Assembly: GCA_016906335.1 (NCBI GenBank)
Contig: JADEYG010000002.1
Span: 434,001 to 498,000 of the forward strand
DNA: 64,000 nucleotides
Direction of reading: 5' to 3'
From: Novakomyces olei
Taxonomy: Eukaryota
Below, one piece after another: positions 2,493-23,165 of the stretch; within the stretch, counting starts at the first letter, position 1; every line of letters begins with the position of its first letter. The notes under the pieces are model-generated. The model was not told where the DNA came from, did no database searches, and saw only the letters and a list, made by a program, of their open reading frames with translations. Position numbers and translations under genes: made by a program.

Positions 2493-2719
2493 TTGTGTGC
2501 GTGACTCAACAGCCATTCCTCCTTGCGTTGTCCCATATTATTTGTTCGACAAGTAATTGAATATGTTTTTGTATAATTTTCTCGTAATAATTTAAACAAT
2601 AATAATCGCGGTATAATCAATAAATCAATAAATCACTTTAAGAGTTGAGTCTTAGTTTCGCGTGGGTGACGAAAGTTGAAGGTCGTCGCCCGAATAGGGA
2701 GCTCGCTTAGCATTCCCAT

Positions 2720-5700
2720 TTAAGAACCAGGTTTGTTCGGGTGTGCACGGTGGAATTCGTTTACCAAATCCATGCAGTTGTGTAAATGTTTCGCAGGCTC
2801 CCACGTGCGGTCGGAGGCGTCGTAGCCTTTCCAATGCACATAATATTGAAGTTGCTTGCGTCGGATGCGCGAGTCTAGAACTTGCTCGACTTCCCATTCC
2901 GGGTTAGCATCCAATATAACTGGAGGTGGTGGCGCGATCTGTTCTCGCGCGATCTGCGACACTGCGTTATGTCGCTCTAGCAATGAAGCGTGGAAGACAG
3001 GATGTATACGCATTGCCTTCGATAGTTCCAAGCGATATGCACGCAAACCAACGCGTGCGATAATCCTAAACGGTCCCAGCTTCTTGGCATCCAGCTTATC
3101 GCATGGCCGCGTAGTGCTAATATTTTTTCGCACTAGCCAGACTTGATCGCCAATAGCAAAACTTTTGTCGACGCGATGCTCATTTGCAAAGCGCGCCTGG
3201 TCGCTGAGAGACTTTTCGATTTCGACTTTCAATAAGCGATGTAGATTCCGTAGGTATTCGATACGTTCATCCGCGGATGGGCATTGTCGCGAAGATGAAA
3301 TCGTAAAGCGACATTTCGGGTTGTAGCCGTAAAAAGCGTAAAACGGTGTTGTCTTTGTAGACGACTGCTCTGAATTGTTGTACGCGAATTGAGCAAAAGG
3401 TAACAAATTGACCCAATTGCTTTGCTGATAGTTGCTGTAGATCCTCAGATATTGCTCTAAGATCTGGTTAAGCCTCTCTGTTTGGCCGTCGCTCTGTGGG
3501 TGGTACGCGGTAGACAACTTCTGCTGTATATCGCATTGCGAAAGCAAGTGTCGTGTAAACTGCGATACAAATACCGAACCCCTGTCAGAGACTATTTCGT
3601 CTGGTAGGCCATAGTTGGCAAATACGCGATGGGCGTAAATCAAAGCTAGCTCAGTAGCCTTAATAGATTCGCGTATTGGTATAAATATTCCGATTTTCGT
3701 AAATCGACAGGTGATTACCCATATGGAGTCGTAGGTTTTTTGTGTAATCGCATCGCGCGACTCCGGTAATTTCACAATGAAGTCCATTGAGATACTTTCC
3801 CAGGGTCTCGCTGGTACTCTCAGTGGGTGTAGTAGTCCATACGGTGCATGTCGCGAAGGCTTGTTTCGCGCACAAGTATCGCACGACTCGACGTAGCTAA
3901 ATATCTCTTTTCGCATGCGTGGCCAATAGTAGTTTCGCATGACTAAGTCCAACGTTTTGGCCTGGCCAGGGTGACCCGCGACATGCGAATCATGGCATGT
4001 CTGTAGTATAGCTAATCGCAAACGATTGTCGTTTGGGATGTATAGCAAACCCGAAAACGTTAGAAGACCCTTTTCGTTTATACTGTAGTTTCGCAGATGT
4101 TCCGACACTGGCTGCTTGCCGAGGTCCTCCATGACAACCTTGCAAGTCTTGTCTTTGCCGTAACATTGTTTAATCTGATCATCAATGCCTGTATCTTCTA
4201 CGGTCGCGAACAGGAAGTGCGATCTGTCCAATAGTGCCATAGTTCGCTCTGGTTTCTCCTGTTCCTTATCGCCGACATAATCGCTTCGCCTAGACAAGGC
4301 ATCCGCTTTGTGATTTAGCTTTCCAGCACGGTATTCAATAACGAAATCATAGGAAGCGATCAATTGCGACCATCGCATCTGTCTACGGCTAAGTACTCTT
4401 GCTGTAAGAAAGTACATGAGATTGCGGTGATCCGTATAAATTGTAGTGCGATGTAACGGACTCTCCAGGTAAACTCGCCATTCGCGAAGACATGCGACAA
4501 TAGCTAACAGCTCTTTGTCGTAGATATCATAGTTTACTTCCGCGCTAGTCATTTTTCGCGAGTAGAACGCGATGGGTCTCATTTCGTCGCTGTTGTCTTT
4601 CTGCGAGAGAATCCCACCGATCGCGAAGTCCGATGCGTCGGTTTCCAAATAACTTGGCTTCTGCGGGTCGAAATGCGCAAGGATCGGCGCACCCAGAAAA
4701 GCGTTCTTCAGAGTTTGGAAAGAGTCAATGCACTCCTTGGAGAAATTAAACTGCGCATCCTTCTTCAGTAAGCGGGTGAGAGGGATGGTAATTTTGCTGT
4801 AGTTTGCAATAAATCTGCGATAGTAATTTGATAGGCCTAAGAACGACATAACGTCTTTCGCGTTCTTGGGTTCAGGCCATGTCTCAATAGAATCAACTTT
4901 CGCTTTCTCCATAGACACTCCTTTCGTAGAGACAACAAAGCCTAGGAACTCTGTCGTGTCTGTGTGGAACTCGCATTTCTCTAGTTTCACAAATAAGTTT
5001 GCTTTGCGAAGTCGTTTCAGTACTTCGCGAACATGCGTCACATGCTCCTCCTCGGTGTCCGAATAGATCAAGATGTCGTCCAAGTATACAACAGCAAAGC
5101 GATCCAGACAATCGCGTAATGTGTCGTTCGCAAGAGCTTGGAAAGATGCCGGGGCGTTCGTGAGCCCGAAAGGCATAACCTGATATTCGTAATGTCCATA
5201 ACGCGTACGGAAGGCGGTTTTCCACTCGTCGCCTTCGCGTATACGGACAAGATTATACGCGCCACGGAGATCTAATCGCGTAAATATCGTCGACTGACGA
5301 ATGCGATCCAATAGCTCCGATATGAGCGGCAGCGCATAGCGATTTTTGACAGTTACCGCGTTTAGCCCGCGATAATCTACGCACAGTCTCAGCGAACCGT
5401 CCTTCTTTTTCACAAAAAGAATTGGAGCCCCCGCGGGCGATGAAGACGGCCTAATGAATCCCTTCGCTAGATTGTCTTTAATGTAGTCGCGTAGTGTTTG
5501 TAGCTCGCGTTCGGCCAGAGGATATATAGGCCCGAACGGCGGCTTCGCGCCTTCTGTCAACGGTATTGCGTGATCCCACGCCTGATGCTGTGGTAGAATG
5601 TCTGCATTTCTTTTCTCAAAAAGATCGCGAAAGTCTGCATACTCGGGAGGTATAGCGACGTTTTTGTCCTCGCTTTTAGCGTCGGTCGCGTATACGCACA

Positions 5701-6271
5701 GCAATCCCGAGTCGTTGCCTCGCGATAGCTTAGCAAATTCCGTCGCACTGATTTGCGATGGTTCGTCTTGTGCCTCGGGCTTCTTGAGGCAGTTTGCTAA
5801 GCAATAGGAAGACTCGAATTCGACTTTTGCACGTCTCCATGCAATCCTTGGCTCATGTTTGTCGAGCCATGGCTTTCCTAAAATAACGTCGTGTCCAGAG
5901 AGCGGTATCACGTTAAACATCATAGTCTCGCGATGTTCGCCTATGGTGACCTCCATGTTTTCAGTCTGGAAGCGAACACCTCCGGTGCGAATCGCTCTTC
6001 CATCCACAACTCGTAGTGGCTCAATCTTCGCCTTCTTCGTTATATCGATTATGCTTCTCGTAGCAAGGCTCTGGCTGATAAAATTCGACGTCGCGCCTGA
6101 GTCGATCAGCGCCTTCGCGTCCAGCTGGCCCTTGCTAGTTCTCAAATTTGCAGTAACTGTGAGATGTATTCCTCTGTCAGGTTCGGGTACCACTGACATC
6201 ACCTCCGAAAGCCTCGTGTCATTAACGCCCAGATCAGGCCTTTCTTTTAGACCTGGGCTCTCGCTTTTCCC
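2720..6271 (-). CDS. pol: Pol of element A (protease, RT, RNase H, integrase, chromodomain), expressed by -1 frameshift from gag
   Basis: LIDSGAT protease; YLDD RT; ETDASD RNase H; HHCC and DDE integrase; GPF motif; WEVEQVLDSR...YYVHWKGY...TWEP chromodomain. Confidence 0.97.
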   Translation of the reverse strand, partial: GKSESPGLKERPDLGVNDTRLSEVMSVVPEPDRGIHLTVTANLRTSKGQLDAKALIDSGATSNFISQSLATRSIIDITKKAKIEPLRVVDGRAIRTGGVRFQTENMEVTIGEHRETMMFNVIPLSGHDVILGKPWLDKHEPRIAWRRAKVEFESSYCLANCLKKPEAQDEPSQISATEFAKLSRGNDSGLLCVYATDAKSEDKNVAIPPEYADFRDLFEKRNADILPQHQAWDHAIPLTEGAKPPFGPIYPLAERELQTLRDYIKDNLAKGFIRPSSSPAGAPILFVKKKDGSLRLCVDYRGLNAVTVKNRYALPLISELLDRIRQSTIFTRLDLRGAYNLVRIREGDEWKTAFRTRYGHYEYQVMPFGLTNAPASFQALANDTLRDCLDRFAVVYLDDILIYSDTEEEHVTHVREVLKRLRKANLFVKLEKCEFHTDTTEFLGFVVSTKGVSMEKAKVDSIETWPEPKNAKDVMSFLGLSNYYRRFIANYSKITIPLTRLLKKDAQFNFSKECIDSFQTLKNAFLGAPILAHFDPQKPSYLETDASDFAIGGILSQKDNSDEMRPIAFYSRKMTSAEVNYDIYDKELLAIVACLREWRVYLESPLHRTTIYTDHRNLMYFLTARVLSRRQMRWSQLIASYDFVIEYRAGKLNHKADALSRRSDYVGDKEQEKPERTMALLDRSHFLFATVEDTGIDDQIKQCYGKDKTCKVVMEDLGKQPVSEHLRNYSINEKGLLTFSGLLYIPNDNRLRLAILQTCHDSHVAGHPGQAKTLDLVMRNYYWPRMRKEIFSYVESCDTCARNKPSRHAPYGLLHPLRVPARPWESISMDFIVKLPESRDAITQKTYDSIWVITCRFTKIGIFIPIRESIKATELALIYAHRVFANYGLPDEIVSDRGSVFVSQFTRHLLSQCDIQQKLSTAYHPQSDGQTERLNQILEQYLRIYSNYQQSNWVNLLPFAQFAYNNSEQSSTKTTPFYAFYGYNPKCRFTISSSRQCPSADERIEYLRNLHRLLKVEIEKSLSDQARFANEHRVDKSFAIGDQVWLVRKNISTTRPCDKLDAKKLGPFRIIARVGLRAYRLELSKAMRIHPVFHASLLERHNAVSQIAREQIAPPPPVILDANPEWEVEQVLDSRIRRKQLQYYVHWKGYDASDRTWEPAKHLHNCMDLVNEFHRAHPNKPGS
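6227..6271 (-). promoter_or_regulatory. -1 ribosomal frameshift signal of element A
   Basis: Slippery G GGA AAA, 6-nt spacer, stem GCCCAGGTC/GATCTGGGC; -1 frame is open into pol; same signal in B. Confidence 0.85.
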
Positions 6272-7194
6272 GGTTCCGTGATACTGTCCATAACCACCGA
6301 GATGCGTTGCTCATAATTGCGTTGCTTCTGTTTGCAATCACGTGCGCGATGACCTTCGCGTCCGCACGTAAAACATCTGTTCTCTTTCTTTCGACGCTGG
6401 CGTTCGTCGCTGGTAATGCTCTTCTTTTCGTAACTGGTAGCATCTACCTCCATGGGAGTGTATCCTTTGTTCGCGATCGTCGCGCCCCTATAGCCTGAAG
6501 CGCCCTTGGCGTTCGTACGGCTAGCGCTTTCGTAGTAACGATCCGACAACCTTTCGTCCACGCGTACAGACTTCTCAATTAAGTCTGACAATGTACGCGA
6601 TTTTTCCAACCGAGATAATTCGTCCTTAATTCGATCTTTCAATCCTTGATAATATTCGTAGCGTAAACTGTGATCGCTAAAATCCAAGTGCGAAGTGATC
6701 TGCTGAAAACGCGAAGTATACTCAGCAACAGATCCTCGCTGTTTGAGCAATGCTAGCTCCCGCTCAGCCTGACTAATGCGGTCGACGCTCCCAAATGTCG
6801 TGGAGAGCTCGTCGCAAAACAGGGCAAAGTCACTGGTAATTAGGCTTTCATCGTGGTCGCGCAAGTGGGGTTCAAACCACGCAAAAGCGGCACCGCGCAG
6901 ATAAGATACCGCAAACAGGACCTTCGCTTCGTCGTTGCGAAACTCATGTGGCTTGAGTCTCACGTATAAGCGAACCTGTGCAAGGAAAGTATCCACCGAT
7001 CTGCGATCACCTCTGAATGTATCCGGCTTCGAAATGCTTGGCCCTTCGCTGACTCCTGATCGTCGAGATCCCCGGGATCCCATTTCCTGGCGAAGGCCTT
7101 CAATAACCGATTTGTCCTTAACGCGCTCCTCTTGGAGCGACGCGATCTGCGCCTGCAGCGTCTGCAGAAACGCGTTCAAGTCCTCTTGACTCAT
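6247..7194 (-). CDS. gag: Gag of element A
   Basis: PDTFRG, SYLRGAAFAW, LKQRGSVAEY, PMEVD motifs and CCHC knuckle CFTCGREGHRARDC. Confidence 0.95.
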   Translation of the reverse strand: MSQEDLNAFLQTLQAQIASLQEERVKDKSVIEGLRQEMGSRGSRRSGVSEGPSISKPDTFRGDRRSVDTFLAQVRLYVRLKPHEFRNDEAKVLFAVSYLRGAAFAWFEPHLRDHDESLITSDFALFCDELSTTFGSVDRISQAERELALLKQRGSVAEYTSRFQQITSHLDFSDHSLRYEYYQGLKDRIKDELSRLEKSRTLSDLIEKSVRVDERLSDRYYESASRTNAKGASGYRGATIANKGYTPMEVDATSYEKKSITSDERQRRKKENRCFTCGREGHRARDCKQKQRNYEQRISVVMDSITEPGKARAQV

Positions 7195-7364
7195 CGTAAT
7201 TCAATAATTCGTTTGTGCTGCTAAACCGTAGCAAAGCACCCTTCGTCGCAACAACTTAGTGCGAAATAAAACTTGTAAATCGAAATTTGTGTACGCCTCC
7301 GTGCGTGACACCTTTCAACGCCGTGTAAATCTGTAGCTTAGACGAGCTCACGGGCTTATAATAG

Positions 7365-8070
7365 TGTAAGGTGGCCCTTAGAGGGGAGCACCGCGGTGTA
7401 AACTCGCGTGTCGCTACAGGCGAACACGGACTGTCCTTTGCGAGACCGCTCGACAAAGGAAGTTCAATCGGGTACCGCGCGAAGCGAGTACCGAGAAACG
7501 GGAACGTAGACTTGCGCCCGGCGCAAGAACTAAGGAAAAGGAAAAGGACGTTGTCCTTGAAAAGGCGACGGCGCTTCTCTAAAGCTTACCTGCTACAAGG
7601 TTATGTAGCAACTTTGAGATTATAAGCCCGTGGAGAGAGTTCTCTCCATGGGCGACTATGTAGACTATCCTATGAGGCTTAGCGGCTCGCTTAGCCACTT
7701 CGCGGCCTAAGCCTCATCCCACCACGATCTCAATGCGATGGTCCCAGACCATCCGCATTGGGAAAGCGGTGGCGAGCTATGAACTCTATGGATCGATCTA
7801 TCTAGCTTCGTAGCGATGCGCGATCGCTACTACTACTGTCATGCGCCGCGACGTGCCTACGTCGCGCGGGCATGGACGTGGACCTGCTTCGCGCGAGCCA
7901 GGTCCAACCTGCTCGCGAGCTAGGCCACTTACGCGCTTCGCGCGAGTAATGTCCAACATTACCTCGCGCGAGCTATTTAGATCTATCTAGCCTGAAGTCA
8001 TCGCCTTTGGCGCTACAGGACTTCAGGCGTCGTTCGCTGTCGTGGTTCACGCGAGGCGGGGATCATGACA
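7365..8070 (-). repeat. 5' LTR of element A
   Basis: Direct repeat of 1167-1872; followed on the sense strand by the PBS 7349-7362. Confidence 0.97.
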
Positions 8071-8600: not shown

Positions 8601-9312
8601 TGTAAGGTGGCCCTTAGAGGGGAGCACCGCGGTGTAAACTCGCGTGTCGCTACAGGCGAATACGGACCGTCCTTTGTTAGACCGCTCGACAAAGGAAGTT
8701 CAATCGGGTACCGCGCGAAGCGAGTACCGAAAAACGGGAACGTAGACTTGCGCCCGGCGCAAGAACTAAGAAAAAGGGAACAGACGTTGTCCTACAGGAA
8801 TACGACGGAGCTCCTCTAAAGCTTACCTGCTACAAGGCTATGTAGTGTCATGATCCCCGCCTCGCGCGAACCACGACAGCGAACGACGCCTGAAGTCCTG
8901 TAGCGCCAAAGGCGATGACTTCAGGCTAGATAGATCTAAATAGCTCGCGCGAGGTAATGTTGGACATTACTCGCGCGAAGCGCGTAAGTGGCCTAGCTCG
9001 CGAGCAGGTTGGACCTGGCTCGCGCGAAGCAGGTTCACGTCCATGCCCGCGCGACGTAGGCACGTCGCGGCGCATGACAGAACTAGTAGCGATCGCGCAT
9101 CGCTACGAGGCTAGATAGATCGATCCATAGGGTACATAGCTCGCCACCGCTTTCCCAATGCGGATGGTCTGGGACCATCGCATTGAGATCGTGGTGGGAT
9201 GAGGCTTAGGCCGCGAAGTGACTAAGCGAGCCGCTAAGCCTCATAGGATAGTCTACATAGTCGCCCATGGAGAGAACTCTCTCCACGGGCTTATAATCTC
9301 AAAGTTGCTACA
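8601..9312. mobile_element. Diverged family-A LTR with internal inversion (8601-8845 minus, 8846-9312 plus)
   Basis: Both pieces match LTR-A; TGTAG at 8841-8845 is duplicated in inverted form as CTACA at 9308-9312. Confidence 0.9.
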
Positions 9313-9812
9313 TGTAATGAACCGCGAAGTTCCATTCGCGAAGTTCCAATTTGGAACTTTTAACGGTTCTTCTCATAGTTGTTCGTAGGATCTTTTCATA
9401 GTTCCGTGCGGAAGCTGTATCTTCCGCACGAAGTGGAACTAGGCCCGACTGGGCAATTCAGCCACCGCGTGGCTGGACTTCGCCAGCCACGCAACAGTCA
9501 CGCCAAAGTTCTATAAATAGTTCCGCACCCGGGAAGAGATTTCTCTTCACGGGTTAACTCTCTCTTTAATACAAGAATAGAATTCAATCTACGAGTTCTA
9601 CGAACTCTCCTCCTTTTGCTGCGGCTACCTCCGCTGTTTTAGCAACAGTACCTGTAGAGGCAGGATAGGCTCCACCGAAGGTTCTTCGAACTTCGGCGAC
9701 CTTTCAGTTTCTCACAGAAGCGGTCAATTAGAGCCACACTCGATACGGGCTCCATGTGTAAGAAACTGGAAGGTCGCCGAAGTTCGAAGAACCTTCGGTG
9801 GAGCCTATCCTG
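9313..9812 (+). mobile_element. Truncated LTR of a third gypsy-like family (C)
   Basis: TGTAAT start; TATAAATA at 9512; hairpin ending ACGGGTT as in LTR-A/B; long inverted repeat 9661-9812. Confidence 0.6.
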
Positions 9813-10512
9813 TGTAAGGTGGCCCTTAGAGGGGAGCACCGCGGTGTAAACTCGCGTGTCGCTACAGGCGAACACGGACTGTCCTTTGCGAGACCGCTCG
9901 ACAAAGGAAGTTCAATCGGGTACCGCGCGAAGCGAGTACCGAGAAACGGGAACGTAGACTTGCGCCCGGCGCAAGAACTAAGGAAAAGGAAAAGGACGTT
10001 GTCCTTGAAAAGGCGACGGCGCTTCTCTAAAGCTTACCTGCTACAAGGCTATGTAGCAACTTTGAGATTATAAGCCCGTGGAGAGAGTTCTCTCCATGGG
10101 CGACTATGTAGACTATCCTATGAGGCTTAGCGGCTCGCTTAGCCACTTCGCGGCCTAAGCTTCATCCCACCACGATCTCAATGCGATGGTCCCAGACCAT
10201 CCGCATTGGGAAAGCGGTGGCGAGCTATGAACTCTATGGATCGATCTATCTAGCTTCGTAGCGATGCGCGATCGCTACTGTCATGCGCCGCGACGTGCCT
10301 ACGTCGCGCGGGCATGGACGTGGACCTGCTTCGCGCGAGCCAGGTCCAACCTGCTCGCGAGCTAGGCCACTTACGCGCTTCGCGCGAGTAATGTCCAACA
10401 TTACCTCGCGCGAGCTATTTAGATCTATCTAGCCTGAAGTCATCGCCTTTGGCGCTACAGGACTTCAGGCGTCGTTCGCTGTCGTGGTTCACGCGAGGCG
10501 GGGATCATGACA
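9813..10512 (-). mobile_element. Family-A solo LTR without TSD
   Basis: 700-bp near-identical LTR-A copy; flanks TCCTG/GCTTC differ. Confidence 0.95.
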
Positions 10513-11019
10513 GCTTCATGTTTTTACGGGACCTTACTGAGAAGGGCAGAATTATTATGGACTATATTTCCACAAAAGAACAAGTGGCGGATATACTTAC
10601 AAAGCCCTTGTGCAAAAAAATATTTAACTACCTACAACAAAAGATACTTAAAGGCGAAACACGTGAAAGTGACGACAACAAGCTTGAGAGGGAGTATAGG
10701 AATATGTCAAGCTTGGACGTCACAGAAAAAGAACAGGAAGGCTGGCTACAGAAAAGAGGAGGAATGGCTGGAGTGGCTGGAGTGGCTGGAGTGGCTGGAG
10801 TGGCTGGAGTGGCTGGAGTGGCTGGAGTGGCTGGAGTGGCTGGAGTGGCTGGAGTGGCTGGAGTGGCTGGAACTGAGTACAAAGAGGCTTGCGCTACCAA
10901 AGTGTAACTCGGTGGCTGGAACCAAAGAAACTATATAGTACAGCGTCAGTAGACTTAGAAAAGTAGCTAAAAGGAGATACAACACTATTCTCTACAACAA
11001 GCCAAATTAAATTTCTACA
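10513..11019 (+). mobile_element. 3' end of copia family E: RNase H C-terminus, PPT and 3' LTR (10695-11019)
   Basis: YISTKEQVADILTKPL motif; PPT GAGAGGGAG; LTR TATAGG...TTTCTACA with a 9-bp repeat. Confidence 0.92.
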
Positions 11020-12219
11020 CACTAGACAACAAACTCCCTCTTTTATCATCATGTGTGGAATATTGTCTTAATTCTTCCAATTAGAAATTTTCATTTTCAA
11101 AGAATTTAACATCCCTGGAGATAATTATTTTGTTGTTCACAGGATTCCATGATCGAAAGGATTTTGCATTCGACTGATAACCGACCATAGCATATTTTTC
11201 TCCCCTGACAATTAATTTGTTTGGCCTGTCGGGCTTGGGCTTCGAATAAACAATACAAAAAAAAGAACTCTCAAATGGTCCACTTGTGGTACATTTCCGT
11301 AAACCATCTCGTAAGGAGTGCGACCGTGTAAGACGGTCCTTACAGCTACAATCGCTGGAGGCCGGCCGTGTATAGTTTAAATAAAGTAAAGGAATAAGAA
11401 AGACCAGGAAAGCAGAAAGCGATTACTGTAAAGCTTACCAGGAGTAATATAATATATTACTCCCACTTTGAGATAATCAACCCGTGAAGGGCGAGAGGCC
11501 TTCACGGGCAACTATAAACTAAACTAAGTTGCGGAGGAGCGGATGCTCCTTCGCATTCTAAACTACTCTTCCCAAGCTAACTTATGCGAAGGTCGCACAA
11601 GTTAGAGAGGGAAGCTCTCAGCCTAAACTAATCTATGAAATAACTATGAATGTTCTCGCGCTAGCGGAGTGCGAAGGGTCGCACTCGCTAGCGTGCGAGA
11701 ATGAGAACGGGAAGCGAGGTCCGTGCACATTGTGCATGGAGCCCCTCGCTCCCGTGGGCCAAGCTGGCTTAGTGCGCGTACCTACATGCGCACTAAGACA
11801 ACTTCTACGTCCCAAGACCATCGCATTACGCGCCGACTGGTCTTGGGCCGCGTTGGCGAAGCTTGCGACGCGCGGACATCCCAAGTCCGACTACAGGCGT
11901 CGCCCCTCGCTTCCCAACGCGGTTGTCAGGGACTCGCCAAGGCGAGGATCATGACAGTATCCCCCCCTCCCTTGGGCGAGGTCCCCGCGCCCGCAAAACA
12001 TAAAATATTCCATAAAAATAGAAAGGCGAACAAAATAAACGCTAATTTCAATTGCCGCGTGTCACAATAATATTTTCTCCTCAGTAAACGCGTAAATAAA
12101 CATATAGAATAGCATGGGAAAATAAAAGGGGTGTTCGCGTTTTGTTGCAGAGGGGTAAAGAGGCAAAACGCGAAGATAAATAGTATCCAGTCGCGTTCGC
12201 AAAGACAGTTCTGAACGCG

Positions 12220-12651
12220 ATGTCGCTTGCACGTGTGACTGTGTCCGAGAAGCCGTGCGGCTATTGTGTTTCGCAGGGGAGGCGCTGTGAGTTCTTCATG
12301 ACAGCCATCCCTCGCGTCCGTCGCTGCTTAGCGTGTGCGGCGCGTAAAACCAAGTGCGAGGGCGCGATGTTTATGTCGCCGACCCTGTTGAATTCGCGCA
12401 TACGCGGGTCGATCGTCGAGCGCGAGTATCGTAAGTATGATAACGCTCGTAAGGCAAAGTTGGCCTCCACTGTTCCTCGCGTTGCGACGCCCGTTGTAGA
12501 AGTCGCCCAATGCGCGGCAACCGATTCGTCTGAGGGCCTCGGGGTTGCTGTTGAAAGAGCATTGGCCGCTAAAGATCGCGAAATCGATTCGCTCCGTCAG
12601 CAGGTCCTAGAGCTGAAAGCGGAAATTTCGGCTTTGCGCGGCTTGGAATGA
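12220..12651 (+). CDS. Antisense accessory ORF of element B: Zn(II)2Cys6-like domain + C-terminal coiled coil (143 aa)
   Basis: CGYC-X6-C-X12-CLAC-X6-C; 25/48 ungapped identities to the A ORF N-terminus; same position and orientation as in A. Confidence 0.85.
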   Translation: MSLARVTVSEKPCGYCVSQGRRCEFFMTAIPRVRRCLACAARKTKCEGAMFMSPTLLNSRIRGSIVEREYRKYDNARKAKLASTVPRVATPVVEVAQCAATDSSEGLGVAVERALAAKDREIDSLRQQVLELKAEISALRGLE

Positions 12652-12817
12652 GCGCCAAAATTCTTCAAATATGCGATACATCTTGTTTTGATTTTAATAA
12701 TTTTTAATACATTTTCAAAAAAAAATTTCCAAATAGCGATAAATAACTAGTGCGAATTGTGTATTATATCGCAGTCGTAAACAAAAATCAAGAGTTGAGT
12801 CTCGCGATTGCGTAAGA

Positions 12818-15800
12818 TTACGTGAGTTGAATGACGTAACCTGTATCGCGATTAACGTAAACATCATAGCTTCGGCTTAGCGGGTGTAATCTGTGAAATT
12901 CTTTCACTAAATCGTCGCAATTTGTCAAATTGCCTGCCGGCTCCCAAGTGCGATTAGCACTATCGTATCCCTTCCAATGTACAAAATATTCCAATTTATT
13001 TCTTCGCTTCCTGGAGTCCAACACTTTCTCTACCTCCCACTCTGGTGTATTCTCAATTATTATTGGTGGTGGTGGTGCTGTCTGCTGTCGCACAATCGTA
13101 GACGTAGACTTGTACGATTCCAATAAAGAAGCATGGAATACAGGAAGTATTTTCATCGTGTTCGGTAAATCCAACTTGTATGCACGTAAACCGATACGTT
13201 CCAAGATTGTAAAAGGTCCAATTTTCTTGTAATCCAACTTGTCGCTTGGCCTAGTGGTACTGATGTTCTTTCTCACTAGCCATACTTTTTGGCCGACTTC
13301 AAAATCCTTGTCGACACGGTGCGTATTAGCAAACCGTGCTTGATCGCTAATGGCGTGCTTGATCTCAATCTGTAAAAGGCGATGTAGTGTCCTCAAAAAA
13401 TCAATCCGATTGTCCGCCGATGGGCATTGCCGTGCTGTTGCTATCGTAAAACGGCATTTGGGGTGATACCCATACAAAGCATAACTAGGTGTCGCTTTTG
13501 TCGATGATTGCTCAGTATTGTTATATGCGAACTGTGCAAAAGGTAGCAAGTTTACCCAATTCGTTTGTTGGTAATTGCTGTAAATTCTCAAATATTGTTC
13601 GAGGCTCTGATTAAGCCTTTCCGTTTGTCCATCGCTCTGGGGATGGTACGCAGTTGATAACCTTTGCTTGATATCACAATGTGCGAGTAAATGCTTCGTA
13701 AAATGTGATACGAAAACTGATCCACGATCTGAGATAATTTCTTCTGGCAGTCCAAAGTTAGCAAATACTCTGTGAGCGTATAGCAATGCTAGTTCTTTCG
13801 CGCTCATGGTCTCGCATATTGGTACAAAGATGCCTATCTTCGTAAAGCGACATACTATAACCCAAATTGAGTCGTAGTCTTTGCCTGTGATGACATCTCT
13901 TGACACCGGGAGCTTCACAATGAAGTCCATAGCAATGCTTTCCCAAGGCTTTGTAGGTACTCGCAACGAATGTAATAGACCGTAGGGAGCATGATGCGAT
14001 GATTTACTTCGTGCGCAAGTGTCGCATGACTCCACATAGTTAAATACGTCCTTTCGCATCCTTGGCCAGTAATAGTTCCTTGTCACAAGCTCTAGCGTCT
14101 TAGCCTGTCCGGGGTGACCTGAAGTCTGCGAATCATGACATTCTTGCATGATTGATAATCGCAAATCGTTGTCTCTGGGTATGTAAATCAAACCCGAGAA
14201 CATTAAAAGACCTTCCTTGTCCATTGTATAATTCTCCAAATGAGCAGCATCGGGCTTGCTCTTTAACTCCTCAATGATATTCTTGCAAATGCTGTCCTTC
14301 TCGTAGCATTTCTTAACATCCTGTGCTAGCGTTTTGTTGTCCTCAATCGCAAACACAAATTGCGATTTGTCCAAAAGCACCATTGTTCGTTCTGGCTTTT
14401 CCTCCTCTTCGCTGCTAACGTAATCGCTTCTTCGCGATAAGGAGTCAGCCTTGTGGTTAAACTTTCCCGCACGATACACGATCACAAAATCGTAAGACGC
14501 AAGTAACTGCGACCAGCGCATTTGCCGTCTATTCAGGACACGCGCGGTCCAAAAGTACACAAGATTGCGATGATCCGTGTATATCGTGGTTTTGTGAAGG
14601 GGACTCTCCAAGTATACCCTCCATTCCCGAAGACATACAACAATAGCTAATAGCTCCTTGTCGTGAATGTCGTAGTTCGTCTCTGCGCTTGTCATCTTGC
14701 GCGAGTAAAATGCGATTGGTCTCATGTCGCCGTTTTCATCCTTTTGCGAAAGGATCCCGCCTATCGCAAAATCTGAGGCGTCCGTTTCCAAGAAGCTCGG
14801 CTTTTGTGGATCGAAGTGCACAAGAATAGGTGCGCCTAAGAATGCATCCTTCAACGCATTGAATGACTCCCTGCATTCGTCGCTAAACACGAACTTTGTA
14901 TCCTTCTTTAAAAGCCGGGTAAGAGGTGCCGTAATCTTGCTGTAGTTGGCGATGAATCTTCGGTAATAGTTCGCCAGTCCCAGGAACGACATAACCTCCT
15001 TAACATTCTTTGGCTCGGGCCATGTTTCAATCGATTTGACCTTCGTATTTTCCATCGACAGACCTTTCGTTGAAATCACGAAGCCAAGAAACTCCGTTGT
15101 GTCGGTATGGAATTCGCATTTCTCCAATTTGACAAATAAATTTGCCTTGCGAAGTCTCTCCAATACTCCGCGCACGTGCTCCACGTGTTCTTCCTCTGTA
15201 TTCGAGTAAATCAGTATATCGTCCAAGTAAACGACAACGTATCGATCAAGGCAATCTCGCAAAGTATCATTGGCGAGTGCTTGAAACGAAGCCGGGGCAT
15301 TCGTAAGCCCAAACGGCATGACTTGGTACTCGTAGTGGCCGTACCTTGTACGAAAGGCCGTTTTCCATTCGTCGCCTTTTCGTATCCTAACCAAATTATA
15401 TGCACCGCGAAGATCCAATCGCGTAAAAATAGTTGCTTGGCGAATGCGATCTAGAAGTTCCGAGATAAGCGGTAATGCATATCTGTTTTTGACAGTGATC
15501 GCGTTCAGACCGCGGTAATCGACGCATAATCTGAGCGATCCATCTTTCTTTTTGACAAATAAGATCGGCGCCCCCGCGGGCGACGACGACGGTCGTATAA
15601 AACCTTTAGCGAGGTTTTCCTTGATATAATCTCTCAGCGTTTGCAATTCGCGTTCGGCGAGCGGGTAGATCGGGCCAAAAGGCGGCTTCGCATTTTCGAC
15701 CAAGGGTATCGCATGATCCCAAGGTTGATGTTTCGGCAAAACGTCCGCGTTCTTCTTCTCAAATAGGTCGCGATATCCCTCGTAGAATCCAGGCAATGTA

Positions 15801-16411
15801 ACGCGAGGCTTGACATCTTGCTCGTCCATAGCGTACACACATAAAATACCTGATTCTCCAGAACGGGCCAATCTTGCAAATTCGGTTGCGCTGACTTGCA
15901 TGGATTCGGATAATGTACTGCACTTCAAACAGTTCGCCAAACAGTAGTTCGACTTGAACTCGACGTTTGCGCGACTCCATCCGATCGTAGGCTCATGCTT
16001 GTCCAACCATGGCTTGCCCAAGATAGCATCGTATCCACGAAGAGGTATGACATTGAAGGTCATCCTTTCTCGATGTTCGCCAATTGATATATCCATCTCG
16101 CTGGTGTGAAAGCGAATACCTCCTGACTTGATTGTCCTTCCATCAACGACTCTGATGGGCTCGGTCTCGCTCTTCTCCGTAAGCTTAATAAAAGCATGCG
16201 ATGCGAGCTTCTCGCTGATAAAATTAGAGGTAGCTCCTGAGTCAATCAGGGCTCTCGCGTTCAACTCTCCATCCTCTGTCTTGACTTTCACGACGACAGT
16301 CAGATGCTTTGCTTTGTCCGGTTCCGTAAAAACTGTCATAACTTCTGGTGGCCTAAATAGTTGTTTGCCCAGATCAGGCCTTTTCATTGGACCTGGGCGT
16401 TCGCTTTTCCC
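12818..16411 (-). CDS. pol: Pol of element B (PR, RT, RH, IN, chromodomain), via -1 frameshift
   Basis: Same motifs as pol A; GGGAAAA at 16405-16411 and stem-loop 16367-16398. Confidence 0.96.
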   Translation of the reverse strand, partial: GKSERPGPMKRPDLGKQLFRPPEVMTVFTEPDKAKHLTVVVKVKTEDGELNARALIDSGATSNFISEKLASHAFIKLTEKSETEPIRVVDGRTIKSGGIRFHTSEMDISIGEHRERMTFNVIPLRGYDAILGKPWLDKHEPTIGWSRANVEFKSNYCLANCLKCSTLSESMQVSATEFARLARSGESGILCVYAMDEQDVKPRVTLPGFYEGYRDLFEKKNADVLPKHQPWDHAIPLVENAKPPFGPIYPLAERELQTLRDYIKENLAKGFIRPSSSPAGAPILFVKKKDGSLRLCVDYRGLNAITVKNRYALPLISELLDRIRQATIFTRLDLRGAYNLVRIRKGDEWKTAFRTRYGHYEYQVMPFGLTNAPASFQALANDTLRDCLDRYVVVYLDDILIYSNTEEEHVEHVRGVLERLRKANLFVKLEKCEFHTDTTEFLGFVISTKGLSMENTKVKSIETWPEPKNVKEVMSFLGLANYYRRFIANYSKITAPLTRLLKKDTKFVFSDECRESFNALKDAFLGAPILVHFDPQKPSFLETDASDFAIGGILSQKDENGDMRPIAFYSRKMTSAETNYDIHDKELLAIVVCLREWRVYLESPLHKTTIYTDHRNLVYFWTARVLNRRQMRWSQLLASYDFVIVYRAGKFNHKADSLSRRSDYVSSEEEEKPERTMVLLDKSQFVFAIEDNKTLAQDVKKCYEKDSICKNIIEELKSKPDAAHLENYTMDKEGLLMFSGLIYIPRDNDLRLSIMQECHDSQTSGHPGQAKTLELVTRNYYWPRMRKDVFNYVESCDTCARSKSSHHAPYGLLHSLRVPTKPWESIAMDFIVKLPVSRDVITGKDYDSIWVIVCRFTKIGIFVPICETMSAKELALLYAHRVFANFGLPEEIISDRGSVFVSHFTKHLLAHCDIKQRLSTAYHPQSDGQTERLNQSLEQYLRIYSNYQQTNWVNLLPFAQFAYNNTEQSSTKATPSYALYGYHPKCRFTIATARQCPSADNRIDFLRTLHRLLQIEIKHAISDQARFANTHRVDKDFEVGQKVWLVRKNISTTRPSDKLDYKKIGPFTILERIGLRAYKLDLPNTMKILPVFHASLLESYKSTSTIVRQQTAPPPPIIIENTPEWEVEKVLDSRKRRNKLEYFVHWKGYDSANRTWEPAGNLTNCDDLVKEFHRLHPLSRSYDVYVNRDTGYVIQLT

Positions 16412-17315
16412 AAATCGGAAAATTCGTGCGTGAATGCAGCGACGTGTTGCTGATTGTACGTCTTCTTCTTCTGCTTGCATTCTCTTGCTCGATGACCCAC
16501 GCGTCCACAGTTAAAGCATTTGATGTTGCTTTTGCGATGGTTGTCATCTTCCTTTTCTAAACTAATCGCGTCCACATCCATAGGAGTAAAACTTGTACTC
16601 GCGTTTGCAGCCGGGCGGTTGTTGGAATATTTCACGGAACCGCGGCTTGCACTCTCGATGTGCCTGTCGGATATTCTTCCATCCACGCGAACTGATATCT
16701 CAATCATTTCATTCAAAGTGCGGGGTCTGTCCATCCTGGAAAGCTCATCCTTGATGCGATCCTTCAGCCCCTGATAATACATAAACGTCAGCGCACTGTC
16801 ATTGAAATCCAAATACGAAGCAATTCTTTGAAAAATGCTCGCATAAGATGCTGCTGATCCACGTTGTCTCAAGGCGGCTAACTCTCTTTGCGCCTGACTC
16901 ACCCTGTCGACCTTGCCGAAATTCGCGGCCAACGCTTCGCAAAAGGCTTCAAAAGTAGGTACTACCGAAGCGAAGTCGTTGTTGCGAAGGTGTGGTTCGA
17001 ACCACGCAAATGCGGCGTCCCGCAAATACGAAGCTGCGAACAAAACCTTCGAACGTCGTCGCGAAACTCGTGCGGTTTCAACATGATGTAAAGGCGAAGC
17101 TGCGCCAAAAAATTCTCGACCATTTTGCGGTCCCCACGAAACGCGTCGGGCTTCATCACCGCTGGTCCGTCACTCGTCGGGGCTCTCTTAGCTCGCGAAC
17201 CGATCTCCTGGGTCAGATGCGCAATGTGCGATCGCCCTTTCTCGTTCTCTGCCTTCAACTCGGCAATCTGAGTTTGCAGGGATTGCAAAAAGGTGTTAAG
17301 CTCCTCTTGCGACAT
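16384..17315 (-). pseudogene. gag: Gag of element B with a 1-bp deletion at about 17050
   Basis: MSQEELNTF...HEFRDD in one frame and KVLFAASYL...CFNCGRVGHRAREC in another; colinear with gag A. Confidence 0.85.
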
Positions 17316-20032
17316 CTTGTCCCTCGTACCGCAAATATCGTATCGTAATCGTTCTTCCAGAACCGTTCTTCGTAAATTGTTCACTCAATCGTCGACTATC
17401 CAAGCCGATACTCAATAACTCAAAATAACTGTGTTTCACCGGAACACTCGATAACTCAAAATTCTCAAACTCGAATCCACGTCGTTCACTCGACGCTTTA
17501 ACCGTTTTAACTTCCGTAAAAATCCGTAAAAATAAGTACCGAACCGCGTCTTTGACTCGACGTCCGAAACTCTCTCGAATCCGAAGGAAATAAAACACAA
17601 ACAATTCCAAAAAACTTCAAACTTCAACGACCGGGACGGGTTGATTATAGTGTAAGACGGTCCTTACAGCTACAATCGCTGGAGGCCGGCCGTGTATAGT
17701 TTAAATAAAGTAAAGGAATAAGAAAGACCAGGAAAGCAGAAAGCGATTACTGTAAAGCTTACCAGGAGTAATATAATATATTACTCCCACTTTGAGATAA
17801 TCAACCCGTGAAGGGCGAGAGGCCTTCACGGGCAACTATAAACTAAACTAAGTTGCGGAGGAGCGGATGCTCCTTCGCATTCTAAACTACTCTTCCCAAG
17901 CTAACTTATGCGAAGGTCGCACAAGTTAGAGAGGGAAGCTCTCAGCCTAAACTAATCTATGAAATAACTATGAATGTTCTCGCGCTAGCGGAGTGCGAAG
18001 GGTCGCACTCGCTAGCGTGCGAGAATGAGAACGGGAAGCGAGGTCCGTGCACATTGTGCATGGAGCCCCTCGCTCCCGTGGGCCAAGCTGGCTTAGTGCG
18101 CGTACCTACATGCGCACTAAGACAACTTCTACGTCCCAAGACCATCGCATTACGCGCCGACTGGTCTTGGGCCGCGTTGGCGAAGCTTGCGACGCGCGGA
18201 CATCCCAAGTCCGACTACAGGCGTCGCCCCTCGCTTCCCAACGCGGTTGTCAGGGACTCGCCAAGGCGAGGATCATGACAGACCGTGAACTCGCGTTGGA
18301 ACACGATTTTTTATGTAAACACTTGTGCGAACTGCTTCTGGCCAAAGGCATTCTGGAAGATTACTGCCGATAAGAGCGGTTCTGGCCTTGTTTAAAATTG
18401 TTCTGTTTGCGCGTTCAGCAACACCGTTTTGCTGAGGTGTATGTGGAATAGTTGTCTCAGAATTAATGCCTTTGTCTGTATAGAATTGTTTGAGCTCGTT
18501 ATTGACAAATTCACCGCCATTGTCAGTTCGAATAATTTTTACTCGCTTGTTAAATTGTGTTTCAATTAAATTGACAACCGTTTTAACGAGTTGACACACT
18601 TCGCTTTTATTTAGAAAAAAATATACGAATGTATAACCCGAGTAATCGTCGATAAAAGTCAAAAAATACCGCAATTTCTTTTGTGAATTTACACGAACTT
18701 CACACACATCACTGTGAATTCGTTCGAATAAACTTGTAGCGCGGTCGTGGCCTTTTTCAAATCGTAGACGCGTAAATTTTCCCTGTGCGCATTCGTGACA
18801 CGAAAATGTCGCTGGAATTTTAAGGTCATTCAATTTTCCATTCGCACATCCGTTAATTAATTTTGATAAATAATTCATGTTGACATGCATAAACCGATTA
18901 TGCCATTGTTCAGCACTGTTTTCTGGTGTTGTAATTAAGGCACTTTGATAATCATTATTTTTATTGTCTCTTACAAACGTGTAAAGACCTCGTTTAATTT
19001 TTCCAGTCGTGATAATACTTCCGTTTGCTCTATCAATTATTTTAACCGAATCTTCGGCGGTAAAACAGACATCAATTTTTTCTCGACCTAGTTTTCGAAT
19101 CGATAGCAAGTTAAATTCAAGTTCAGGAACCCACAGTGTTTCTTTTAAGTCAAGAACGATATTTGGCCCCAGTTGAATACTCGCCGTTCCAAATGCTTTA
19201 GCAAGCGTTGTATCTCCAGCAGCGGTTTTTATATTAATGTTGCAGGGATGCAGAGTACCTTTAAACATTGCTTTATTAAATGTGATGTGTTCTGTTGCTC
19301 CGCTGTCTAGTATCCATTCGTTGGATTTAATATTATCGATATTCATAAGAAGCGCACTGAAGTATGGTTGAACAATATTATTATTATTAAACTCCTTTTT
19401 GTTGCATGTTGCAACACGATGACCAGGCTTCCCACATCTGAGGCATATTCTGTTTTTTCCAGCACACGTCTTCCGTATGTCCAGATTTATTACAGAACTT
19501 GCAATTCATATTGGACGTCGCAACGTTTGCAGTTGCAATGTTTGCAGTTGCCTTAACACATTTTCGCGCAAATGACCGGACCCAAAACATTGCTTCTGCC
19601 AAACTCATCTTTATACATTCCTCTGGGGAACGTTGAGAGACAAAAGACTCGATTCCAGCACAATTCTCAATCGCATTAAAATAAGCCGTGACAAATAAGC
19701 CGTGACAAATAAGCCGTGACAAAGAACTTTTCCAATTTTCCATAGTCGCGTGACATGGAATCAAACGTAAGGGGAAGTTGGTCGGAACTTAGCATTTTTG
19801 TGTGAAACGACATAAAGCAATTGGCCAAATTTGTAAAGTTATTGTTGAAAGTGGTGATGTTTTCGGGATCTTCCAGCTTTAATGAGGCTAGCTCGGCCGC
19901 TGTTTGAAAGACATAAGATGCAATATCTTTCTCAATAACCACTTCGATCTCCAGGAGAAGCTCTGTAGGACTGCGATATGCGCTATTGACGTAAGGCAAG
20001 TATTCCTTCGTCGCGTTGCAGGGTGACAAGAA

Positions 20033-20738
20033 TGTCATGATCCCCGCCTCGCGTGAACCACGACAGCGAACGACGCCTGAAGTCCTGTAGCGCCAAAGGC
20101 GATGACTTCAGGCTAGATAGATCTAAATAGCTCGCGCGAGGTAATGTTGGACATTACTCGCGCGAAGCGCGTAAGTGGCCTAGCTCGCGAGCAGGTTGGA
20201 CCTGGCTCGCGCGAAGCAGGTTCACGTCCATGCCCGCGCGACGTAGGCACGTCGCGGCGCATGACAGTAGTAGTAGCGATCGCGCATCGCTACGAAGCTA
20301 GATAGATCGATCCATAGAGTTCATAGCTCGCCACCGCTTTCCCAATGCGGATGGTCTGGGACCATCGCATTGAGATCGTGGTGGGATGAAGCTTAGGCCG
20401 CGAAGTGGCTAAGCGAGCCGCTAAGCCTCATAGGATAGTCTACATAGTCGCCCATGGAGAGAACTCTCTCCACGGGCTTATAATCTCAAAGTTGCTACAT
20501 AGCCTTGTAGCAGGTAAGCTTTAGAGAAGCGCCGTCGCCTTTTCAAGGACAACGTCCTTTTCCTTTTCCTTAGTTCTTGCGCCGGGCGCAAGTCTACGTT
20601 CCCGTTTCTCGGTACTCGCTTCGCGCGGTAACCGATTGAACTTCCTTTGTCGAGCGGTCTCGCAAAGGACAGTCCGTGTTCGCCTGTAGTGACACGCGAG
20701 TTTACACCGCGGTGCTCCCCTCTAAGGGCCACCTTACA
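20033..20738 (+). mobile_element. Family-A solo LTR with TSD
   Basis: 706 bp; TSD AAGAA at 20028-20032 and 20739-20743; inserted in gag of copia D. Confidence 0.96.
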
Positions 20739-21092
20739 AAGAAATACTTTCGTTTCTTTGTTACCGGCGATTTCGAGGTTTTCGAGCTTTTCTTTGAATG
20801 GCACAACTTTCGACAAATGCCAACGGTTCAAAAGGCGGTACAGTTCTCCCTTCCAAGACGGATAGTAAATCAACCCTTTGAGCTGGGGAATTTTGATTAT
20901 TGGCTGCTCTCTGGAATTAATTACTTTCATTTTGTTCTCCGCCGGATTTTCAACTTGTTCCATTTCAGACTCTTAATCTGTAGTTGTGAGCAATTTATGA
21001 TTGTTAATATTGTTAATTAATTTGTTGTTCGACTATTTATTTATAAACGTTTCCCCCACTGTGGCTTAGATGTATTTATCAGAGTATTTTGA

Positions 21093-21246: not shown

Positions 21247-23165
21247 AGTAAATCAAGCTTGTGCAGCGGCTAATTACTAATTATAGAAATATAATTTATC
21301 GTGAGAGGTGGGATAAATTTTACCGTGAGAAATGCGATGGCAAACCGGCAGACTATAAATAGACTTAGCTAGAATCACTATGATTTATAGGAATATGTCA
21401 AGCTTGGACGTCACAGAAAAAGAACAGGAAGGCTGGCTACAGAAAAGAGGAGGAAAGGCTGGAAGAGTCAAAGTGGCTGGAGTGGCTGGAACTGAGTACA
21501 AAGAGGCTTGCACTACCAAGTGTAACTCGGTGGCTGGAACCAAAGAAACTATATAGTACAGCGTCAGTAGACTTACAAAAGTAGCTAAAGGGAGATACAA
21601 TATTATTCTCTACAAGCAGCCAAATTAAATTTCTACATAATTAACGAAAATTGAATACAACATTTATTCTATTTAACACGTTCGAAACAAACTTACAAGA
21701 TTCAACAGATTAAGAGTCTGAACAAAATGAGCAGCACGGGAGTGGTTTTCAAACCTCATGGAAACGGAGATTTGCCGTTTCTTGCTATACCAAGATTGAA
21801 TAACTTGGTCGAGTATCCGCATTGGAAATCGAAATTGACCGGAATTCTTGAAACTTACAGACTGGCACACGTGATGCCAAACGTCACGAATGAAAGAAAT
21901 ATAATCGATGATGTTAGCTACAAGTCCACATCGGCTATGCTTTTTCTTACTCTTAAAGAAGTAATTTCGGTACCAGTTCTTAACGATATTTGCCAAAATG
22001 CACTGACACCAAAATCACTTCTTTCCGCCATTGATGGCGTCTTCTTAGAGAGAAGATATCGCTTAATTGTTCAAATTACTGGGGAACTTTATGGACTGCA
22101 AGCGCAAGGATTAGGACAAATAGCGGTATTAAACTCGAAATTTAACAGTCTTATCTTGAGCTTACGTGAATTGCGCAAAGACCTTCATGCAGAAGAAATT
22201 TACCAAATATATCTCAATATGATAAAGGGATGTGAGGTGCTTAGAAGTGAAATACGCATCTGGGAGCGTTCAAAAAATATAAATCTGGAAGAAGTACAAG
22301 AAATTGTTCTTGAAGCGATGCAAGGAGATAATGGAGATAATTTTGGGTCAGAAATGGCGTTGACAACATATTGTGTTCCGATATGCAAATATTGCAAGAA
22401 AAAAGGTCATACGGAAATTAACTGCAGATTTAAAAATCGCAGCTGTTTTATATGTGGTGAAAAAGGTCATTTCAAAGCTGAGTGTGACAAAAATCTGAGA
22501 AGAACTAATAGTAATAAATCAAGTGAACATTACTATCGTGTGGCATTTATAAATTCTTCGGTTAAATCTAAAAGCATCAGTATAAAATGGATCGTTGACT
22601 GTGGAGCATCGCAACATATGACGGAGAATGAGGTAGCTTTTAGCAGTCTAAGACGTTATAATAATGATCAACATCATCTTGTAATTGCTGCGGGGAAAGA
22701 AAAATTAAGAGCAATGGGATATGGAGAAATACGTTTGAGTCTCTCTGACGATAATCAGGTTTATTAAAAAATGTCTTGTGGGTACCATCGCTCGGTTTTA
22801 ATTTAATTTCACTTGGTTCACTTGCTAGTGAACATTTATCAGTTTATTTCACAAGAGGAAAAGCAGCACTTTACGACCCAACGGGAAAAAGCTAGGAGAC
22901 TTTAATAAAGAAAATAACTTGTATCCTGTCGAAACAAAAACTGTTGGCTATGCTTCTAAAAAAAAGATGCTCGCGTTGGTTGCTTCAAAATTTTACAAAC
23001 AGAATCTTTGGCACGAGCGACTAATGCATCTTAATGAGAAATATACGACTGAACTCGTCAAAGGACTCGGTGCTGGGAGAATACAACATGAACTTAATAA
23101 AATCAATTTAAATATTGATTGTGAAAGTTGCATTGAAGGTAAAATGGCACGCCAGCCATTTCCAG
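21247..23165 (+). mobile_element. Truncated, frameshifted copia element G (close relative of F): partial 5' LTR, gag, PR, start of IN
   Basis: ORFs 21727-22767 and 22919-23165 closely resemble F; two CCHC knuckles; WIVDCGAS; PBS at about 21708. Confidence 0.88.
21386..21637 (+). mobile_element. Older family-E solo LTR inside LTR-G
   Basis: Matches LTR-E with unexpanded 9-mer; near-TSD TGATT/TAATT. Confidence 0.88.

Follow-up and report, generated by a model that had tools for sequence, protein, structure and literature searches.

What does a small open reading frame (ORF) encode when it is found at the same place, on the strand opposite to gag-pol, in two different retrotransposon families of one genome region? 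This question is raised by a 64,000-nucleotide stretch of the fungus Novakomyces olei (contig JADEYG010000002.1, positions 434,001 to 498,000; the whole stretch is called the window below, and positions are counted from its first letter), which contains two complete Ty3/gypsy chromoviruses, elements A and B, both on the minus strand. Each carries one such antisense ORF, designated ORF A and ORF B. The best explanation, to which we give about even chances, is that they represent a selected antisense gene whose product, a homodimer of the zinc-cluster type, would act as a self-encoded regulator of the element.

ORF B is located in the 860-bp spacer between the end of the long terminal repeat (LTR) at 11956 and the pol stop at 12818 (minus strand), before the polypurine tract (PPT) and the 3' LTR; the interval 11957-12818 runs exactly from the first internal base past the LTR through the pol stop. 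ORF A occupies the equivalent spacer of element A, between 1872 and 2720, in the matching orientation, so that place and strand are shared and the length is similar in both of the chromovirus families of the window. Both ORFs thus have the position and orientation of the antisense ORFs known as aORF-3R, past the pol stop, ahead of the PPT and 3' LTR and opposite in strand to gag-pol. An in-frame stop at 12181 precedes the start of ORF B by 13 codons with no ATG between them, and the start sequence ATGTCGCTTGC is identical in ORFs A and B; accordingly, the start codon of ORF B is fixed at 12220. In ORF A, which is counted here from the conserved MSLA start, a further in-frame ATG is present upstream, at 1992. 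Both ORFs form islands of higher G+C content (0.57 in B and 0.61 in A) amid flanks of 0.30-0.44; in 11958-12219 the value is 0.43, against 0.57 in ORF B. TATA-like motifs precede the ORFs, TATATAA at 1936 in A and ATAAAT at 12176 in B, and AATAAA or ATAAAT motifs follow them, a layout suggestive of a transcription unit complete in itself.

Searched by tblastn with ORF B, the whole window returned, apart from the ORF itself, one real relative, 2037-2219 in ORF A (45.9% over 61 aa, E 2.8e-14), the remaining four matches having E-values of at least 0.56. The two best of these four, weak matches at 28182-28319 and 31077-31214, were considered as possible relatives and rejected, being CCHC knuckles of Copia gag. 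With BLASTP, ORFs B and A align without gaps at 28 of 61 positions (E 2e-17). The alignment confirmed the original prediction that the two proteins share 25 of their 48 N-terminal residues, including MSLA, all six Cys, VRRC, CAAR and CEG, and the tail ALAxxDxxIxxLxxxxxxLxxEIxxLR was likewise found in both ORFs. The Cys residues are invariant at positions 13, 16, 23, 36, 39 and 46. Variable residues cluster in the N-terminal arm and, as had been described, in the C16-C23 loop (one identical residue of six) and in the middle, while the segment CAAR[KR]T[KR]CEG, putatively the DNA-reading one, is nearly invariant between A and B and differs in this from the C16-C23 loop and the linker. The original prediction also held that specificity may have diverged together with each family's LTR; in this putative DNA-reading segment the two proteins have changed little. 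Both conserved blocks coincide with predicted structural units, the six-Cys domain and the zipper interface.

The similarity has the form expected of a protein under selection. In the ungapped 61-codon block the nucleotide identity is 0.59, 0.61 and 0.33 at the first, second and third codon positions, respectively; 73 of 122 first and second positions are conserved against 20 of 61 third positions (Fisher p = 9e-4). Scored without gaps by BLOSUM62, the block reaches 149 in the ORF frame and 1, 11, 23, 55 and 15 in the other five, each of which contains stops in at least one copy; the frame scoring 55 is the antisense frame that shares the wobble position of the ORF, and it has stops in both copies. 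A stop-free run of equal length occurred in 26 of 2000 shuffles of the spacer for B and in 13 of 2000 for A. The pol proteins of A and B are 75% identical, with a third-position identity of 0.40 and a synonymous rate (dS) not computable by NG86, hence neutral sites are saturated between the families. Against this background the ORF has kept its start, its length and an open frame, along with two conserved blocks, although its N-terminal part has accumulated replacement changes about three times faster than pol (nonsynonymous rate, dN, of 0.49-0.59 vs 0.17), still far from random. Saturated silent sites together with frame-specific similarity point to a selected protein, and it is highly probable that ORFs A and B are a selected protein-coding gene.

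Purifying selection on a two-domain protein, as proposed in the original prediction, is therefore borne out by the one-frame similarity, the third positions at a background level of 0.33 and the diverged spacer. Similarity of equal strength in all frames and in the flanking DNA, named beforehand as a reason to abandon that proposal, is not what was found: the ORF frame scores 149 against 55 or less elsewhere, and the spacer is unalignable. The accompanying statement that the flanks and most of the LTR cannot be aligned held by blastn, which gave no alignment between A and B for the LTRs or for the pol-to-LTR spacers (cutoff 1e-10 for the spacer), and required correction for two short blocks surviving outside the ORF. 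One covers about 50 nt over the LTR end and the PPT; the other is the 13-mer AAGAGTTGAGTCT, identical in both families (12790-12802 in B, 2640-2652 in A), which is found in the AT-rich, otherwise unalignable stretch that separates the end of the antisense ORF from the pol stop and may be a cis signal for one strand or the other. A looser AGTTGAA repeat comes after the 13-mer.

The spacer sequence is present in three DNA runs from two studies and under two organism labels. Contigs of an independent DNA run with another organism label (X2) were compared over 11100-17649; they span all 30 bins at very high word depth, and their loose ends at 11956 match the 3' LTR boundary of element B. Among the X2 variants listed, no substitution or indel falls in 12220-12651, contigs being prone to drop rare variants, and a contig of 385 nt (12291-12675) matches the window without a difference. 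The listed variants number 0 in the ORF and 26 in pol; the corresponding Poisson p of 0.047 was not used as evidence, because the variants come in clusters on a few diverged contigs, and rare ones are dropped. The claim that the gene is a maintained part of the lineage is supported by only two families in one window, to which X2 adds that no change is listed in the ORF of the multi-copy family B. All of the X2 depth has one extra base at each of 12880 (near the pol C-terminus), 17055 and 17341 (gag). Since 17055 is the point where the gag frame changes in the window copy of element B, the broken gag is not a trait of the family; the base losses of the window copy are either private 1-nt losses or assembly indel errors.

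The N-terminal domain contains six Cys residues in an arrangement like that of a zinc cluster. The family pattern of Zn(II)2Cys6 domains is CX2CX6CX5-12CX2CX6-8C (PMC5542705), and the Cys spacing of both ORFs agrees with it, the 12-residue loop between the halves being at the family maximum. Zn_clus (PF00172) is the best Pfam match of ORF B (E 0.0095, 16.5 bits); a Pfam scan of the 30-residue halves alone gave no match. An AlphaFold2 model built from the two-sequence alignment (mean predicted local distance difference test, pLDDT, of 66) contains helices 14-19 and 37-42, each just past a CX2C, a strand 24-26, a helix 54-84 and a confident helix 105-142. A Foldseek search against PDB returned nothing at E <= 0.001 and 29 matches at E <= 10; of the 24 matches listed, 17 are Zn2Cys6 DNA-binding domains, namely those of Pho7, Put3, Ppr1, Hap1, Leu3, Gal4, AlcR and Cep3, and the other seven are a replisome subunit. 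With the N-terminal domain folded alone, five of seven Foldseek matches were Zn2Cys6 domains, all of them weak (E 1.1-9), and with a profile of the N-terminal 55 residues only two chains, both of Put3, were matched (E 2.4 and 2.7) among 177,635 PDB sequences. The zinc-cluster assignment is accordingly probable but sub-threshold. The name zinc cluster used in the original prediction is a reasonable reading, to be qualified by scores below the Pfam cutoff; because the matches are sub-threshold, the domain is called here Zn2Cys6-like and is not filed as a member of PF00172.

The C-terminus is predicted to form a parallel homodimeric coiled coil, a leucine zipper. Two copies of residues 94-143 obtained a score of 0.40 (0.40, 0.40 and 0.41 in separate runs) against 0.01 for the best control, with agreement between runs in at least 96% of contacts and a partner pLDDT of at least 72. 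The mark applied is reached by 21 of 30 solved same-chain pairs and by none of 23 solved single chains; for eukaryotes it is reached by 17 of 29 and 0 of 30, respectively. The predicted interface is parallel and in register (111:111 to 139:139) and holds 11 of the 12 residues of 111-143 that are invariant between A and B (hypergeometric p 6e-4).

The protein is small and basic (143-151 aa, pI 9.5-10.7), with an Arg-rich linker, especially in A. ORFs A and B are, on this explanation, selected accessory genes of a fungal Ty3/gypsy chromovirus lineage. Antisense transcription most likely would start from a promoter in the lower-G+C leader, which adjoins the 3' LTR on its internal side, or from one within the LTR. 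The product would consist of an N-terminal Zn2Cys6-type domain, a variable charged linker and a C-terminal homodimeric zipper, which together suggest the layout of a minimal dimeric DNA-binding factor without a regulatory or activation region. A dimeric DNA binder of the zinc-cluster type is a moderately probable identity for the product. Such a dimer may recognise CG-rich sites arranged as dyads or repeats, most likely in the U3 of the element's own LTR, and would there determine how strongly the element is transcribed; action on its own LTR is put forward tentatively, as a rather doubtful step. Expression, zinc binding, DNA binding, target sites and direction of regulation are in all cases what we infer from sequence and prediction.

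A number of results weigh against the reading of the ORFs as a gene for a zinc-cluster regulator. The comparison rests on two copies only, and dN/dS between A and B is not properly estimable, because dS is saturated even in pol; a value of 0.236 from concatenated blocks is not to be trusted, and NG86 and YN00 otherwise failed or were unreliable. The Zn_clus scores, 16.5 bits for B and 11 bits for A (E 0.5), are below the gathering cutoff of 21. The N-terminal model is mediocre (pLDDT 62-76 as part of the whole protein, 50 in isolation), and the E-values of the Foldseek matches are all 0.28 or worse. In the HMMER alignments the order of the two halves is the reverse of the canonical one: with Put3, residues 36-49 of the ORF fall on the first, basic half and residues 11-26 on the second, Pro-preceded half. 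The segment CAAR[KR]T[KR]CEG is this basic half, which HMMER aligns to the first half of Put3, and the best Pfam stretches are swapped likewise (36-48 of B on profile positions 3-15, 12-25 of A on 18-32). All these alignments score weakly, and the domain has an internal symmetry; a permuted arrangement is hinted at, weakly but consistently, by the swapped order. Some 65 residues separate the last Cys from the zipper, whereas in solved Zn2Cys6 dimers the zipper follows the cluster directly, and the pass of the coiled coil in the dimer prediction may reflect likeness to, or memory of, solved zippers. Three RNA runs under the same species label gave 0 reads on 11100-17649, which is no test of expression.

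Relatives of the protein were not found in word-based, profile or metagenome searches, and this too counts against the reading; a very distant relative of about 30 bits would escape the word-based and profile searches. In the word-based protein search none of 37 candidates for ORF B reached E <= 0.01 and none of 2694 candidates for the A/B alignment reached E <= 10, while the profile search of 1.84 billion representative proteins gave no match on the Cys domain at E <= 0.001. Candidates rejected in the course of these searches were two spurious profile matches, to a repetitive or an unrelated protein, that fell on the linker or coiled coil of the profile; five metagenome loci, on bacterial contigs and in an alternative frame of a glucanotransferase-like gene; and the PDB sequence matches of the whole-protein profile, which were designed coiled coils and a ribosomal protein only (E >= 0.33). 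The best ESM Atlas scores, 0.77 for the whole protein and 0.83 for residues 1-55 (12220-12384), are below 0.9 and serve as leads only. The cluster scoring 0.83 comprises 52 hypothetical Ascomycota proteins of about 105 aa, which might be unannotated relatives; in a lower cluster DUF3716 is found on 28% of members.

Alternative explanations differ in how much of this evidence they accept. The ORFs may encode a selected element protein that is not a sequence-specific DNA-binding regulator, its Cys domain binding RNA or a protein partner and its dimer acting in particle assembly, nuclear import or integration-site choice, roles of a kind suggested for nuclear-localised plant aORF proteins. To such a protein the evidence of selection applies equally, the zinc-cluster matches stay below threshold, the Arg-rich linker makes for a very basic product, and plant proteins of the same antisense class are described as nuclear-localised, with function not known (PMC7264820). 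It is nevertheless unlikely, since the Cys spacing, the best Pfam match, the best PDB sequence and most of the best folds all point to the Zn2Cys6 DNA-binding domain and to no other zinc fold, and since the pairing of a zinc cluster with a coiled coil for dimerisation is typical of DNA-binding members of the family, as in solved dimers. Further from the preferred reading, the functional product may be the antisense RNA, pairing with genomic RNA or feeding RNA interference, with the frame incidental. Regulatory antisense transcripts have been discussed for several retroelements (PMC7264820), but third positions at background beside conserved first and second positions, a single frame open in both families, and the conservation of six Cys and of heptad positions make this account very improbable. 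Equally little credence is given to a frame that is open by chance, or to the decaying remains, now without function, of a zinc-cluster gene taken up from the host: the ORFs are short, known in two copies and without database relatives, and copy B differs from X2 by single bases in gag and pol, yet despite saturated neutral DNA the start ATGTCGCTTGC has been retained together with frame, length and 25 of 48 N-terminal residues, no more than 26 and 13 of 2000 shuffles gave an open run of equal length, and the elements are young, with identical LTRs and intact target-site duplications (TSDs).

An alternative of another kind, concerned with classification and not with mechanism, is that the ORF is the local member of the known gene brtn of Boty-like elements (Botrytis, Sclerotinia). 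Boty and elements A and B presumably belong to one Tf1-like self-priming group. Boty is a fungal gag-pol element with a chromodomain and brtn (PMC4227169), brtn is classed among the antisense ORFs located from pol to the 3' LTR (PMC7264820), and the nearest language-model cluster for residues 1-55 is the Ascomycota one of about 105 aa, whose score of 0.83 makes it no more than a lead. BRTN proteins are, according to PMC5987419, available in NCBI, yet the profile and word-based searches gave no match on the Cys domain, from which a distant relative could escape. This classification is possible, though it falls short of an even chance.

The ORFs have counterparts in known systems. Antisense ORFs from pol to the 3' LTR have been described as gene23 of maize Grande, in rice RIRE2, Silene Retand and Phaseolus PvRetro13, and as brtn of fungal Boty; according to the 2020 review, their products have no known function, and for none of them is a clear resemblance to another protein on record (PMC7264820). 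ORFs A and B share with the plant aORF-3R the position and the antisense orientation and may share the conservation within families (PMC7264820), and for them, as for the Grande aORF, which has its own promoter (PMC7264820), a promoter of their own may be assumed. They differ in the fungal host, in that Retand at least is described as of a non-chromovirus lineage (PMC11963269), and in a recognisable combination of zinc-cluster-like domain and zipper. Boty is likewise a fungal Ty3/gypsy element with a chromodomain and an additional antisense gene (PMC4227169, PMC7264820), while no similarity between brtn and ORFs A and B was detected in searches expected to contain BRTN.

With the host Zn(II)2Cys6 factors (Gal4, Ppr1, Put3, Hap1, Leu3, Pho7), ORFs A and B share the spacing, the two predicted short helices after CX2C, the basic K/R-x-K/R-C-E/D-G segment and a predicted C-terminal coiled coil. 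Domains of that family are built of two helix-strand units around a cluster of two zinc ions and recognise DNA, typically at CGG half-sites. The ORFs differ from these factors in Pfam scores below the cutoff, in halves that align in swapped order, with the Pro-Cys half ahead of the basic one, in the 12-residue loop, in a zipper about 65 residues away, in having no regulatory or activation region and in being encoded by a retrotransposon and not by the host. HBZ is the antisense bZIP regulatory factor of human T-cell leukaemia virus type 1 (HTLV-1). Like ORFs A and B it is an antisense gene by the 3' LTR for a small dimerising protein of the transcription-factor type, a likeness of layout only: HBZ is a bZIP protein of a retrovirus of people, ORFs A and B are of the zinc-cluster type in a fungal retrotransposon, and the two are not homologous. 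No bZIP family was found among the Pfam matches of the ORFs at E <= 10. The antisense promoter of HTLV-1 is located in the 3' LTR (PMC7264820). A fuller version of the proposal, in which a minimal homodimeric Zn2Cys6-type factor with permuted halves is encoded antisense and controls element transcription by binding the palindrome arrays of its own U3, with the linker setting a family-specific geometry, would make the protein a fungal counterpart of HBZ and give the aORF-3R genes their first assigned function; taken as a whole it is improbable.

ORFs A and B are best filed as antisense ORFs of the aORF-3R kind with a transcription-factor-like architecture, possibly related to brtn. A literature search revealed no earlier description of a fungal LTR retrotransposon with an antisense gene for a zinc-cluster protein, and the searched passages of two surveys of fungal LTR elements (PMC3248453, PMC2864245) mention no antisense ORF. 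The two ORFs give the aORF-3R class its first readable architecture and with it the testable hypothesis of an element-encoded DNA-binding self-regulator. If this is true, LTR retrotransposons outside retroviruses can carry their own transcription factor. The matched protein-LTR pairs A and B would then be suited to the study of specificity divergence, and the ORFs would flag a class of small genes missed by gene callers and repeat masking, with none in the 1.84 billion representative proteins.

Features of elements A and B and of their antisense ORFs (positions in the window; PR, protease; RT, reverse transcriptase; IN, integrase)
Feature	Position	Strand	Remarks
ORF B	12220-12651	+	143 aa, antisense to gag-pol
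Six-Cys domain of ORF B	12256-12357	+	residues 13-46, CX2CX6CX12CX2CX6C, Zn2Cys6-like
C-terminal helix of ORF B	12532-12648	+	residues 105-143; AlphaFold2 helix 105-142, pLDDT 81-92
ORF B leader	11996-12219	+	candidate internal antisense promoter; TATA-like ATAAAT at 12176
Spacer from ORF B stop to pol stop	12652-12817	.	AT-rich, G+C 0.30; holds AAGAGTTGAGTCT
ORF A	2037-2492	+	151 aa from conserved MSLA start; counterpart of ORF B
Element B	11327-18280	-	complete Ty3/gypsy chromovirus; TG..CA boundaries; 5-bp TSD GACCG
Element B 3' LTR	11327-11956	-	630 bp; 5' copy 17651-18280; pair 100% identical
Element B PPT and adjoining block	11957-11995	-	kept between families A and B (alignment)
Element B pol	12818-16480	-	domains PR-RT-RNaseH-IN-SH3-chromo
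Element B gag	16384-17384	-	split over two frames in the window copy
Element A	1167-8070	-	second chromovirus family; TSD GTAAT
Element A LTRs	1167-1872 and 7365-8070	-	706 bp, identical pair
Element A gag	6247-7194	-	
Element A pol	2720-6199	-	

Both elements are young, their LTR pairs being identical and their TSDs intact. Matches to protease, reverse transcriptase, RNase H, integrase, SH3 and chromodomain were found in both pol proteins, and the internal regions give a 68.5% alignment over gag-pol only (2738-7030 vs 12881-17154). Gag and pol overlap in different frames, at 6247-6310 in A (64 nt) and 16384-16510 in B, which implies a programmed frameshift and not a single gag-pol ORF. The 13-14 nt just after the 5' LTR, where the primer binding site is expected, are complementary to a stretch inside the LTR: 7349-7362 with 7619-7632 in element A (CACGGGCTTATAAT) and 17636-17648 with 11473-11485, or the equivalent place of the 5' LTR, in element B (ACGGGTTGATTAT). 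This priming stretch has no obvious match to a tRNA end. Elements of the Tf1 type prime reverse transcription by themselves; the complementarity fits such a mechanism, and elements A and B appear to be self-priming.

The U3 of LTR A contains five palindromic units of the CTCGCGCGAG type at a spacing of 22-27 nt (1662-1779), and in LTR B (11426-11850) eleven short inverted repeats were found, with sequences differing from the units of LTR A. These palindromes and inverted repeats are candidate protein sites or RNA hairpins. Further copies of LTR A, whole or partial, 92-99% identical and some of them inverted, are present between and beyond elements A and B, at 8601-9313, 9812-10513 and 20033-20741, and represent solo LTRs or rearranged remnants.

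The cluster of Ty3/gypsy and Copia elements fills the left 34 kb of the fungal window, and host genes are located in its right half (37-64 kb), where the domains GH76, Glyco_hydro_cc, class II aldolase, ZIP, CRAL-TRIO, PEX11 and Ams2/SPT21 were identified. A repeat unit of about 330 bp with a hexanucleotide microsatellite was found at 10694-11020, 21386-21637, 28966-29335 and 33865-34164; the microsatellite translates as GVAGVAGV.., WLEWLEWLE.. or PATPATPAT.., depending on the frame. The unit is located at the ends of Copia-type elements, the ORFs of which extend into it, and is probably a piece of a Copia LTR.

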